Of a DNA stretch of 64,000 bases, positions 35,857-43,809 are shown one piece after another. The first letter of the stretch is position 1. The number at the start of each line of letters is the position of its first letter. This stretch comes from Escherichia coli. Lineage in GTDB: Bacteria > Pseudomonadota > Gammaproteobacteria > Enterobacterales > Enterobacteriaceae. The position numbers and the translations under genes are program-made. Location of the stretch: assembly GCF_046105845.1 (NCBI RefSeq), contig NZ_CP151004.1. One strand, given 5' to 3'. The notes under the pieces were generated by a model that saw only the letters and a list, made by a program, of their open reading frames with translations, was not told the origin of the DNA and ran no database searches.

Positions 35857-36272
35857 TATCAGATAAACGATATGTCATGACAATTTACAGACAGCATCGA
35901 TATATAATTCATATTTATTAATTTTTAATAATGATTCTCATCTGAGTATGTATCATACAATAAGCATTATAAATAACCAATAAATTATTTATTATATTTA
36001 TATATTGCCCCACTCTTCAGTTATCCTGTCTAAAATAAATCTCTTTGTTTTCAAATGACTGTATTTTTATATAAAGTCAATCATTGCGAGCATGGATTCT
36101 TTTAGTTATATTACCAAGCAGCTCATATAATATTTTCAAGCCATTCTATCTCTTATTTTTTCTGTGGTTAACTACACCAGCTTTATTCATTTAAATAATT
36201 TGACTTATTAAAGCTGAATGTAAAAATAATCGCCAATATTGCTTGGATTTTTTAACAAAAGGAAAGGTATAA

Positions 36273-36977
36273 ATGAAATTCAATCTATCTAATTTATCAG
36301 CAGTTTTACTCGCATCAGGTATGCTGATGTCAACTGCGGTAACCGCTGCGCCAGGCGATGCATCACAATTTGGTGGTGCGGATACAGACTGGAGCACCGT
36401 TGATTATCCAAAACTCACCGATATGGATAACAACACCGATGCGATGGGCGGAAACATCCGCTTTACTGGTCGTGTGGTTAAAGCGACGTGTAAGGTTGCT
36501 ACAGAATCGAAACAGATTGAAGTGGTACTGCCAGTCGTACCTTCTAACGCTTTCACGGGCATTGATACCGAAGCAACGGGCGCCAGTAACCAGACTGACT
36601 TCAACATTAAACTGACTGATTGTAGCAATACGGACAGTCAAAACATTGAATTTCGTTTTACTGGCGTAGCAGACGGTGCCAACCAGACGCTTGCCAATGA
36701 AGTGGAAGGAGCTACTGATGCTGATGGTACTGGCGAAGCGGGAGCTACAGGTGTAGGGATTCGTATTTATTCTAAAAACACGACAACTGATGGCCTGATT
36801 AAACTGAACACACAAACTCCCCAGGGGAGTAGTTCTTCAGCAGCCTACGTGATTCCTGGCGATGCTGCCACTCATGATTTTACTGCGGCATTTACCGCGG
36901 GCTATGCTCAGAACGGTAGTACCGTTGCACCAGGTCTGGTGAAATCGACGGCAAGTTTCGTCGTGCTGTACGAATAA
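36273..36977 (+). CDS. Fimbrial major subunit candidate (type-1/FimA-like pilin family, atypically long)
   Basis: 234 aa with signal peptide. Conserved pilin Cys pair (ATCKV ... LTDCSN). C-terminal beta-strand ASFVVLYE typical of chaperone-usher subunits. Strong SD AAGGAAAGG. First gene of the fimbrial island. Confidence 0.85.
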   Translation: MKFNLSNLSAVLLASGMLMSTAVTAAPGDASQFGGADTDWSTVDYPKLTDMDNNTDAMGGNIRFTGRVVKATCKVATESKQIEVVLPVVPSNAFTGIDTEATGASNQTDFNIKLTDCSNTDSQNIEFRFTGVADGANQTLANEVEGATDADGTGEAGATGVGIRIYSKNTTTDGLIKLNTQTPQGSSSSAAYVIPGDAATHDFTAAFTAGYAQNGSTVAPGLVKSTASFVVLYE

Positions 36978-36989
36978 TTACAGCAAGAT

Positions 36990-37023
36990 AATTTCAGGTT
37001 ACAGTTACTTGTAACCTGAAATT
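36990..37023 (+). terminator. Perfect 14-bp stem-loop after the major subunit gene (probable intra-operon attenuator)
   Basis: aatttcaggttaca-gttact-tgtaacctgaaatt, 12 nt after the stop codon. No strong U-tract follows, so partial termination or a stability element is more likely than a full terminator. Confidence 0.6.
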
Positions 37024-37097
37024 AATATTACATGTTTATTTGTAATAAATAGACATGCATCAGTAATTACAATTAATTTCATCTACAAGGATGCAGT

Positions 37098-41046: not shown

Positions 41047-41053
41047 GGTTAAT

Positions 41054-41578
41054 ATGACACGACATTGGAATTTAATTGCCCTATTATTCTCTATGATATC
41101 TATGTCATCCATTGCTGATGATACAACGCATGCAGGTGTTGTACGCATCGAAGGAATTATAACAGCAAAGACTTGTATTGTTGCCGATGAGTCTCAAAAT
41201 TTCACAGTTAACATGCCTGATGTTCCCAGTTATACGGTGAGAAATTCAGGGAGTGTTACTGAAAAAATTGGCTTCTCTTTAAAGTTAACCCGTTGTGGCA
41301 GTGATGTCAGTCATGCCAATGTCACGTTTGATGGAACACCAGTTAGTGAAGACGCGGCCCTATATAAACTGGAAGAGGGCTCAGTCGATGGGTTAGCACT
41401 GGCTATTTTTGATAACAACAGACAAAGTATTAGCAATGGTATAAAGAGTACAAGTTATGCCCTTACACCATTGGTAGATAATACATTGCATTTTTTTGCT
41501 GCTTATAAAGCTATAAAAAATGATGTACAACCAGGAGAAGCGAATGCATCAGTTTCCTTTATCGTCACTTATGATTAA
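41054..41578 (+). CDS. Fimbrial minor subunit (FimF/FimG-like)
   Basis: 174 aa. Signal peptide, Cys pair (KTCIVA ... TRCGSD), C-terminal SFIVTYD. Confidence 0.82.
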   Translation: MTRHWNLIALLFSMISMSSIADDTTHAGVVRIEGIITAKTCIVADESQNFTVNMPDVPSYTVRNSGSVTEKIGFSLKLTRCGSDVSHANVTFDGTPVSEDAALYKLEEGSVDGLALAIFDNNRQSISNGIKSTSYALTPLVDNTLHFFAAYKAIKNDVQPGEANASVSFIVTYD

Positions 41579-42320
41579 CGTGCTGATATGCATTTTAATA
41601 TGTTGCACAAATGCGCAGGCAGGAGTTGTTGTTGGCGGTACTCGTTTTGTTTACCCAGAAAAGCAGTCATCAATTTCGGTCGAGCTTAAAAATACTGCCA
41701 GTAAAGATATGCTGGTTAAAATTTCCGTGACACCTGATGATGGACGTCAGTTAAAAGGGACACTGGAATCCCAGCCTTTACTTCCAGATAAGGCGTTTAT
41801 TGCCACACCACCATTATTGGTACTTAAACAAGATAAAAATACCAAAATAAGAATCAATCGCGTGGGGGGGCAGTTACCTATAGATCGTGAGAGTTTATTT
41901 ATACTGAATGTTGCAGCGTTACCTGCTCAGGAACAAAACTCACAGCTCAAGAATGAAAATCAACTCCAGGTGGCTGTACGTAATAGGATGAAAATATTTT
42001 ACCGCCCGGAGACGTTATCAGGTAATCCACTTGACGCTTATCAACAGTTACGCTGGTCGCGAAAGAATGAAGCTGTCACCGTTTTTAACCCTACGCCCTG
42101 GTATGTGACACTCTATAATTTATCTATTGATGGTAAAAGCATAAATGGTGGCATGGTTGCACCGTTTAGTCATCGCCAACAGGATTGGTGTCAGCGGCAA
42201 GGATATTGTGAGATTAACTGGCAAACACTGGATCTTTACAATAATGCCTTACCCGTATGGAGCGTAAAATTAAATGTTTTACAAAATAATGTGATGAGTG
42301 CAGTAGCGATACATGGATAA
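41544..42320 (+). CDS. Second periplasmic fimbrial chaperone (divergent FimC paralog with Cys-containing C-terminal tail)
   Basis: Chaperone motifs GTRFVYP, FIATPPLLVL, DRESLFILNVAALP, NQLQVAVRNRMKIFYRP, FNPTPWYVTLYNL. Start at 41544 chosen for its AGGAG SD 8 nt upstream; 41520 or 41571 are alternatives. Overlaps the 3' end of the preceding subunit gene. Confidence 0.8.
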   Translation: MHQFPLSSLMINVLICILICCTNAQAGVVVGGTRFVYPEKQSSISVELKNTASKDMLVKISVTPDDGRQLKGTLESQPLLPDKAFIATPPLLVLKQDKNTKIRINRVGGQLPIDRESLFILNVAALPAQEQNSQLKNENQLQVAVRNRMKIFYRPETLSGNPLDAYQQLRWSRKNEAVTVFNPTPWYVTLYNLSIDGKSINGGMVAPFSHRQQDWCQRQGYCEINWQTLDLYNNALPVWSVKLNVLQNNVMSAVAIHG

Positions 42321-43464
42321 TCGGAGAAGCATGATGCTTACTTATTTTTGGGGAAATATAAAGGCAATTTTTATATTGTTGGCTCTTTTAATCAGTAGTT
42401 GCTATCACATCGTATATGCTGAAGATATGGGACGGGATCGCGCTTTTTGTTATCCTGGCTCACCAGGTAATAATACTACTCCAGCGACGTTTTCTTATAA
42501 TTTTGGCACTGTTACTGTCTCTGATGTTAATAATAATTCACCTGGAACAGTACTACCAGTTCAGAACTGGAAAATAGGGCATTATAATGCTTACTGTAAT
42601 TCATTGGATGATTATGAAATTTATTTTACAGCTACATCTGGTATAGATCCGTCAGGTGCATCTGGTGATCATCAGAGCAACGATATATTTATTCCATTAA
42701 CTCATGAGATATCTGTCTCTACGCATATTAAACTTTATAATAAAAACGGAACAATGACAGATAAGACAGTACCTTTTGACAACTATAGTACCAATTATCC
42801 AGCAGACAGAAGTAAACCATCGAGTTGGGCTTCAGGTACTGAAGGCTATATAAAAATTAGACTTGATAAAAAAATTATTTCCGATATCTCAATAAATAAT
42901 GTGTTGCTGGTTTCTTTGTATGCCAGCCAGTTCCCCACAGAGCACGGACCAATTCCTTTATTTAACGCTTATATTGGCAACTTAAATATTGATGTTCCAC
43001 AAGGTTGCACAATTAATGAGGGAACAAGTTTTACCGTTAATATGCCGGATGTCTGGGCCAGCGAATTAAGTCGGGCTGGTGCTGGAGTAAAACCAACAGG
43101 TATTTCTCCAGTGGCAACCACTATTCCGATAAATTGTACGAACAAAGATATTGATGCCGTAATGACGCTGGTTTTCGATGGCAATATTTCATCAACGAGA
43201 GATGTTAATGGTCGGCAAAGCATTATTCAGGCGGAGGATAACCCCGACGTTGGTATTATGATTATGGATAGCCAACAGGAATCCGTAGACTTGAACGCTC
43301 TTGCTGCGCATGTTGGTGTGCCATTTAAGTTAGTTGAAAACCAGGCTGAGTCAGCTCAGACGGCAGATGTGACTTTTCTGTCTCTCCCTGTAAGTACCAC
43401 AGGGCGACGCCCTGCTGCAGGCCGTTATAATGCCCTGGCTGTTTTGCGGGTGGAATACCAATGA
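42313..43464 (+). CDS. Putative fimbrial tip adhesin (two-domain FimH-like architecture)
   Basis: 383 aa. N-terminal signal peptide, an approx. 200-aa N-terminal region with no motif I recognise, and a C-terminal pilin-like domain (Cys pair GCTINE ... INCTNKD, terminal LAVLRVEYQ). Last gene of the operon. Start may be 42331 or 42334, which have a better SD. Confidence 0.75.
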   Translation: MDNRRSMMLTYFWGNIKAIFILLALLISSCYHIVYAEDMGRDRAFCYPGSPGNNTTPATFSYNFGTVTVSDVNNNSPGTVLPVQNWKIGHYNAYCNSLDDYEIYFTATSGIDPSGASGDHQSNDIFIPLTHEISVSTHIKLYNKNGTMTDKTVPFDNYSTNYPADRSKPSSWASGTEGYIKIRLDKKIISDISINNVLLVSLYASQFPTEHGPIPLFNAYIGNLNIDVPQGCTINEGTSFTVNMPDVWASELSRAGAGVKPTGISPVATTIPINCTNKDIDAVMTLVFDGNISSTRDVNGRQSIIQAEDNPDVGIMIMDSQQESVDLNALAAHVGVPFKLVENQAESAQTADVTFLSLPVSTTGRRPAAGRYNALAVLRVEYQ

Positions 43465-43809
43465 TGTGTGAGTCAGTGCAGAATCGGATTAGCCCGTTTT
43501 TAGCCATCGGTAGGGTAAAGTTTGATGGAAAATATGGGTTATGTGCCGATGTATCCCACAATGAAATAACCCTCGAGGGAAAGGAATCAGCGCGATGAAC
43601 AAATTCACGGTGTTTTGCTGCTAGGTGTGGTATTTCTCGGCTTTATTATTGTACCGTTCTTGATATGGCCGACGGTGGTTGCGCTGGCTGCTTGTATTAT
43701 TACGCTGAGTTTTCTGGGGAGATACTGTTCTCTATCCCGCTCATGATCAGGCGTATTTCACTTCTGGAATTACAACTTTGGTTATCGGTTGTATATGCGC
43801 TTTGTCCAT

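Follow-up and report, generated by a model that had tools for sequence, protein, structure and literature searches.

An AT-rich block between glgP and glpD in a 64,000-nucleotide stretch of Escherichia coli DNA (contig NZ_CP151004.1; hereafter the window) is almost certainly the chromosomal fimbrial operon Auf (aufABCDEFG) at its usual glgP-glpD position, in the allele of the phylogroup D strain 042 and not the B2/CFT073 allele. The operon, its locus and this allele are already known, and the observation is correct but ordinary. Auf was reportedly first described in the uropathogenic E. coli strain CFT073 by Buckles et al. in 2004. In CFT073, aufA-G correspond to c4214-c4207 (PMC5956150; PMC6727828).

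The block encodes a complete chaperone-usher operon

Seven co-oriented open reading frames (ORFs) on the + strand spanned positions 36273-43464 of the window, between glgP and glpD, and all of them were intact and full length. Where two starts are given below, the second is that annotated by RefSeq in AST215, a near-identical strain.

36273-36977, + strand: aufA, major fimbrial subunit of 234 amino acids (aa), matching the NCBIfam pilin families LpfA, FimI and FimA
37098-37850, + strand: aufB, periplasmic chaperone of 250 aa; best NCBIfam match, FimC-type chaperone (E = 9e-68)
37892-40483, + strand: aufC, outer-membrane usher of 863 aa, matching NF011740 (1077 bits)
40474 (longest ORF, from GTG) or 40513 to 41046, + strand: aufD, minor subunit of 177 aa from the RefSeq ATG, matching the FimF, FimA and BcfE pilin families
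41054-41578, + strand: aufE, minor subunit of 174 aa, matching the FimF, FimI and LpfE pilin families
41520 (longest ORF) or 41544 to 42320, + strand: aufF, second periplasmic chaperone of 258 aa from the RefSeq ATG, matching NF011739 and NF008483 (E = 5e-51)
42313 (longest ORF) or 42334 to 43464, + strand: aufG, two-domain tip adhesin of 376 aa from the RefSeq ATG, identified by the Pfam Fimbrial domain and an alignment to structure 5AFO

The original prediction had proposed a complete seven-gene chaperone-usher operon in this gene order, and the NCBIfam searches bore it out: all seven products belonged to pilin, chaperone, usher or adhesin families. The match of AufC to NF011740 extended over residues 23-863 and scored 1077 bits, above the curated cut-off of 995, and the representative of the AufC cluster (98% identical) carried the PapC_N (PF13954), Usher (PF00577) and PapC_C (PF13953) domains. 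The hallmarks of a classical chaperone-usher system were thus all present, namely the usher architecture, PapD-like chaperones (two in this operon) beside the usher, and pilin subunits that include a two-domain adhesin.

For AufG, the Pfam Fimbrial domain was confined to residues 218-376, and the full-length protein aligned to the solved two-domain adhesin 5AFO (E = 2e-18), the LpfD of adherent-invasive E. coli. The matches of AufG to the FimH and LpfD families fell under the NCBIfam cut-offs of those families. AufA carried about 30 extra residues (approximately residues 26-55; positions 36345-36440) that separate the signal peptide from the donor strand. The CFT073 allele had these residues almost unchanged, and neither ElfA nor the solved FimA and FimI structures had them; the FimA and FimI structure matches to AufA began only at residue 54-57.

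Function is inferred here from the established chaperone-usher pathway of these families. Auf subunits would be exported via the Sec system and capped in the periplasm through donor-strand complementation by the PapD-like chaperones AufB and AufF. The AufC usher would then polymerise the delivered subunits through donor-strand exchange, and the predicted fibre would have an AufA rod, AufD and AufE as adaptors and the two-domain AufG at its tip.

The operon is Auf, in the 042-type allele

Wurpel et al. (2013) classify chaperone-usher operons by the phylogeny of the usher and the position of the locus, and their Table S2 records Auf (gamma-1) for B2 strains, for the phylogroup D strains UMN026 (ECUMN_3889) and 042 (EC042_3692), and for E. 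fergusonii (EFER_3402). Whether the operon matched a catalogued fimbrial type had been left open by the original prediction; the match is Auf, gamma-1. The operon of the window lay between glgP and glpD, showed the Auf gene order, and encoded an usher that grouped, by identity and not by a formal tree, with c4212 of CFT073 (80.4% identical) and EC042_3692 of 042 (98.8%). We met no evidence that contradicted the Auf identification.

Amino acid identities to the two reference alleles were as follows.

AufA: 99.1% to 042, 84.6% to CFT073
AufB: 99.5% to 042, 78.0% to CFT073
AufC: 98.8% to 042, 80.4% to CFT073
AufD: 98.9% to 042, 72.1% to CFT073
AufE: 96.0% to 042, 69.6% to CFT073
AufF: 97.8% to 042, 66.4% to CFT073
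AufG: 93.7% to 042, 80.7% to CFT073

The 042 operon shared with the window its locus, the seven genes, a downstream pseudogene scrap and a bacterial interspersed mosaic element (BIME), and aufA-F were 98.5-99.8% identical in nucleotides and 96-99.5% in amino acids. It differed in aufG (91.9% of nucleotides, 93.7% of amino acids) and in aufB, which was frameshifted in 042 and intact in the window. The CFT073 operon had the same locus, gene order and left junction, a 234-aa AufA with the N-terminal extension, and the hairpin that follows aufA. By contrast, its nucleotide identity was only about 75%, and it had three intact genes and no BIME between aufG and glpD, where the window held gene scraps and a BIME.

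Among 5,426 complete E. coli genomes, the 7.6-kb block matched 786: 228 at 95-99% nucleotide identity, a group that includes 042, and 558 at about 75%, a group that includes CFT073, UTI89, 536 and NC101. All 787 operon places in these genomes were chromosomal and none was on a plasmid, with one place per genome except for a single genome with two. In a search of 5.8 billion proteins, Auf ushers formed clusters at 98% (2,401 members), 80% (4,041 members), 75% and 74% identity, and all others were at most 55% identical. Because identity falls from these values directly to 55% or less, the Auf usher forms a discrete clade.

When the GTDB species representatives were scanned with the usher, the only matches were ushers 43-54% identical to it (from Citrobacter, Enterobacter, Klebsiella, Salmonella and Pantoea), with no Escherichia locus among them; the 8-residue patterns of the scan, which had to match exactly, evidently overlooked other Auf alleles. 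Since that scan returned other genera only, the presence of Auf in E. fergusonii rests on Table S2 of Wurpel et al. (2013).

Read-assembled contigs, too short to show the flanks, contained the two rarer Auf usher alleles (75% and 74% identical). One such contig, from Logan ERR11042405 (extract L040, 6869-9184), carried the 75% usher allele and two tandem aufG-like genes, each about 66% identical to AufG of the window.

The glgP-glpD interval is probably an old polymorphic site

The window was aligned over its full length with 70 kb of K-12. The only large block specific to the window was 35795-43795, in agreement with the original prediction that this was the only clearly accessory locus present. 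K-12 homology ended at 35794, 4 bases past the stop codon of glgP, and started again at 43796, at the BIME upstream of glpD. Because of these breakpoints, the variable segment measures about 8.0 kb; the original prediction, which gave 35857-43500, located it correctly but drew it slightly too narrow. The AT-rich character it reported after glgP was likewise evident, with a GC content of 0.403 in the segment (40.3%) against 0.530 (53.0%) in the other 56 kb of the window, where 8-kb windows ranged from 0.514 to 0.553. The segment and its core flanks comprised the following elements besides the operon.

33343-35790, + strand: glgP, glycogen phosphorylase, left core flank, from the RefSeq annotation of matching loci and nucleotide identity
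35791-36272, + strand: AT-rich region upstream of aufA, 482 bp, 27.8% GC, with no ORF
35809-35855, + strand: inverted repeat GCCGTGTG ... CACACGGC with a T-run after it, read from the sequence
36989-37024, + strand: perfect stem-loop of 15-16 bp in the aufA-aufB spacer, from folding and an inverted-repeat search
43513-43803, + strand: decayed remnants of a PstS-like module (last 18 codons of its gene 1 and frameshifted codons 12-74 of its gene 3), from blastn and tblastn against the module of strain 100416
43810-43842 and 43878-43906, no strand assigned: BIME made of two inverted repetitive extragenic palindromic (REP) sequences, shared with K-12, at the right edge of the variable segment
43970-45475, - strand: glpD, glycerol-3-phosphate dehydrogenase, right core flank, from annotation and nucleotide identity

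That the operon is missing from K-12, as had been predicted, was confirmed by the alignment, which showed a glgP-glpD interval of 436 bp there instead. The K-12 spacer is therefore short, as claimed, but it is not empty, for it holds the yzgL pseudogene. Many strains carry in this interval a three-gene module made up of two PstS-family genes and a gene for a 200-aa hypothetical protein, which is intact in strain 100416 (extract L004, 2916-6044). K-12 yzgL (extract L003, 3917-4190) consists of the initial 82 codons of PstS-like gene 1, fused close to the final 20 codons of gene 3. From its sequence, we read the K-12 state as a deletion scar, yzgL, and not as an untouched empty site. The counterpart of the remnants at 43513-43803 is marked by RefSeq as a frameshifted partial pseudogene in AST215, 042 and VCSW5. 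In CFT073, the interval beyond aufG contained a different gene pair and an intact homologue of the third module gene only. The two Auf alleles, approximately 25% apart in DNA, shared the left junction, including the Auf-specific hairpin after glgP, whereas the flanking core genes were 95-99% identical across the compared strains. The PstS-like scraps, the yzgL scar and the two alleles at one junction indicate that the interval is a multi-state site on which deletion and, probably, homologous replacement via glgP and glpD have acted.

Taken in this light, the locus appears to be a long-standing polymorphic site and not a recent island insertion. We consider it improbable that the block is a recently acquired mobile island inserted into an empty K-12-like spacer. 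The low GC content (40%, compared with 53% elsewhere in the window) would fit such an arrival, as would the absence of the operon from 85% of complete E. coli genomes and the sharp break in K-12 homology right after the glgP stop codon. However, the ORF list of the segment contained no integrase, insertion sequence (IS) or regulator, as the original prediction had stated (it had also excluded a recombinase, and none was found), and no further ORF of at least 60 aa lay outside the seven genes. We found no tRNA gene within 10 kb on either side of the segment (window positions 25-55 kb scanned), and a repeat search at the borders returned no att-like direct repeats bracketing it. None of the features of an integrase-type genomic island was thus present, whether an integrase or transposase gene, a tRNA or att site as target, or direct repeats at the flanks. 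In addition, alleles 25% apart in DNA occupy one junction in different phylogroups, the spacer of K-12 is likewise read as the scar of a deletion, the window retains module scraps downstream of aufG, Auf is also listed for E. fergusonii (Wurpel et al. 2013), and 0 of 787 operon places were on a plasmid.

The glgP gene of the window was 98.0% identical in nucleotides to that of K-12 and 99.2-99.3% to those of strains 042 and AST215. For glpD, the values were 95.1% to K-12, 96.6% to 042 and 98.8% to AST215. The right flank was thus more diverged across strains than the left (95.1% against 98.0% to K-12; 96.6% against 99.2% to 042), which may be a recombination footprint beside the polymorphic site.

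At the right edge, the two inverted REPs at 43810-43906 agreed with the REP/BIME element that had been noted there. The REP at 43878-43906 was an exact match, with 0 expected by chance, and the REP pair of the BIME was seen again at about 4.7 and about 10.6 kb of the window, with 0 matches expected by chance. The element was present in several copies in all E. coli genomes: a query that included the BIME hit a median of 18 places per genome, compared with 1 for the query without it. In AST215, the closest complete genome, an IS621-family element lay beside the BIME, between Auf and glpD (extract L001, 12088-13068); it was absent from the window.

A second site at which the window and K-12 differed lay at 18239-18299, where the window had 61 unrelated bases and K-12 has 3.45 kb between yhhY and ggt. 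The K-12 segment contains the Hcp-family gene tssD/yhhZ, yrhA, IS1A, yrhD and yrhB. At this second polymorphic site, the window thus has the 'empty' state and K-12 has the extra DNA.

Non-coding elements and expression of the operon

The 482-bp region upstream of aufA is presumed to be the promoter and regulatory region of that gene, and it contained promoter-like hexamers at 36084-36112 and 36200-36227. Because this region is very AT-rich and no regulator is encoded locally, control in trans is suggested, and silencing of the H-NS type would be one possibility. The only reported regulator, TosR, acts in trans: its over-expression up-regulates aufABCDEFG in CFT073 (PMC5956150).

Judged from its sequence, the inverted repeat at 35809-35855 is a putative glgP terminator specific to Auf carriers. 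In the alignment it was common to 042 and CFT073 and missing from K-12 and strain 100416; K-12 has a different hairpin after glgP. A terminator scan returned no canonical terminator after aufG or glgP, and the repeat at 35809-35855 went uncalled because its loop exceeds 8 nucleotides.

Folding of 36970-37100, which includes the stem-loop between aufA and aufB, gave -35.7 kcal/mol (z = -6.9). In the CFT073/UTI89 allele, which is approximately 75% identical, the stem at 36989-37024 was retained: one pair differed by a compensatory exchange and three pairs had become G-U. By analogy with other fimbrial operons, this hairpin is likely an attenuator or a stabiliser of aufA mRNA that gives an excess of the major subunit, and it probably raises the aufA transcript above the downstream message.

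Some observations weigh against the function inferred for the operon. The CFT073 prototype is described in PMC5956150 as being without a demonstrated receptor or virulence phenotype. According to RefSeq, several reference carriers hold auf pseudogenes, with aufB frameshifted in 042 (extract L005, 3785-4536) and aufG disrupted by a frameshift or internal stop in CFT073 (extract L002, 10240-11370) and UTI89 (extract L007, 11238-12358), so the operon is evidently dispensable in some lineages. The promoter scan, moreover, stayed at chance level, with 26 sites against 25.3 expected, so we assign no promoter to the operon.

Such observations could be extended to the view that the operon is no more than an inert relic, whose genes happen to be intact but which is silenced for good and of no use to the cell. 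We give this view little credence. It draws on the missing local regulator and the extreme AT content of the upstream region, on the frequency of pseudogenes among other carriers, and on two statements in PMC5956150, namely that CFT073 Auf is poorly expressed in vitro and that its deletion causes no fitness defect in murine urinary tract infection (UTI). The same paper, citing Buckles et al. (2004), which it also gives as the source for Auf not being a fitness factor in murine UTI, reports that Auf is made in vivo in mice. All seven ORFs of the window were full length, the ratio of nonsynonymous to synonymous divergence (dN/dS) was 0.07-0.2 for aufA, aufC and aufG against other carriers, including 0.10 in aufG despite a synonymous divergence (dS) of 0.31, and the aufA-aufB hairpin was kept across deeply diverged alleles. 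These points argue against an inert relic.

The adhesin gene is a rare sub-allele

Within the Auf operon of the window, aufG stood apart. It was matched at 95% nucleotide identity or more in 3 of 5,426 genomes, and 224 genomes matched it at about 92%. Against 042, the dS of 0.31 for aufG compared with 0.03-0.04 for aufA and aufC, and the differences were concentrated in the first approximately 800 nucleotides, which correspond to the receptor-binding half. The AufG protein was 100% identical in amino acids to that of strain VCSW5. This aufG appears to be a sub-allele that was imported or is ancient, and that evolves under purifying selection.

It is possible, although rather unlikely, that the rare recombinant aufG sub-allele and the B2/non-B2 dimorphism (approximately 25% in DNA) reflect long-term diversifying or balancing selection on Auf through receptor specificity or antigenicity. 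If this were true, different aufG alleles would bind different host ligands.

Comparison with related fimbrial systems

Ycb/Elf (elfADCG-ycbUVF) is also gamma-1, and Wurpel et al. (2013) describe it as a close relative of Auf, the two being mutually exclusive. K-12 Ycb/Elf corresponded to the Auf operon of the window one-to-one in its seven genes and in having two chaperones. It differed in sequence (25-50% amino acid identity; 49.6% for the ElfC usher), in its locus (ssuE-pyrD), and in that its adhesin-like gene follows the usher and does not close the operon.

Fim and Lpf shared their assembly families with Auf, with FimC, FimD, LpfB and LpfC among the top NCBIfam matches, and the alignment of AufG to LpfD (5AFO) ran over both domains. 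By contrast, all equivalog scores stayed under their cut-offs (FimD, 957 against 975; LpfC, 812 against 1271; FimH, 90 against 472; LpfD, 86 against 412), and the FimH match to AufG covered the pilin domain only. Fim has fimB/fimE recombinases and an invertible switch, whereas Auf has a second chaperone and a different locus. A repeat search and the ORF list yielded neither inverted repeats bracketing the promoter region nor a recombinase ORF, so that the distinguishing features of Fim were missing. The description of the block as 'Fim-like' in the original prediction therefore holds at the clade level only, given the lack of fimB/fimE-type recombinases and a switch, an usher below the FimD cut-off and an adhesin nearer LpfD than FimH. 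We rejected membership of Fim, Lpf or Ycb/Elf on the basis of sub-threshold scores, low identity, gene order and locus.

A new, uncatalogued chaperone-usher type merely resembling Fim, to which the nucleotide identity of only about 75% to the CFT073 prototype and the bare RefSeq name 'fimbrial protein' might point, is highly improbable and is refuted by the usher identities together with the typing of EC042_3692 by Wurpel et al. (2013): locus, seven-gene order and left junction are those of CFT073 auf, the usher shares 80% identity with c4212 and 98.8% with the Auf-typed EC042_3692, and no non-Auf usher exceeded 55%.

Implications

The seven genes, whose counterparts in AST215 carry only the generic RefSeq label 'fimbrial protein', can now be named aufA-G, and the strain can be recorded as a carrier of an intact non-B2 Auf allele. 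Beyond correct annotation, the finding is of little importance. For the family, two or more deeply diverged Auf alleles occupy a single chromosomal site, and there is further mosaicism in the adhesin gene. The glgP-glpD spacer of E. coli exists in several states, namely Auf of two types, the PstS-like module and the yzgL scar, and does not reflect the simple presence or absence of an island.

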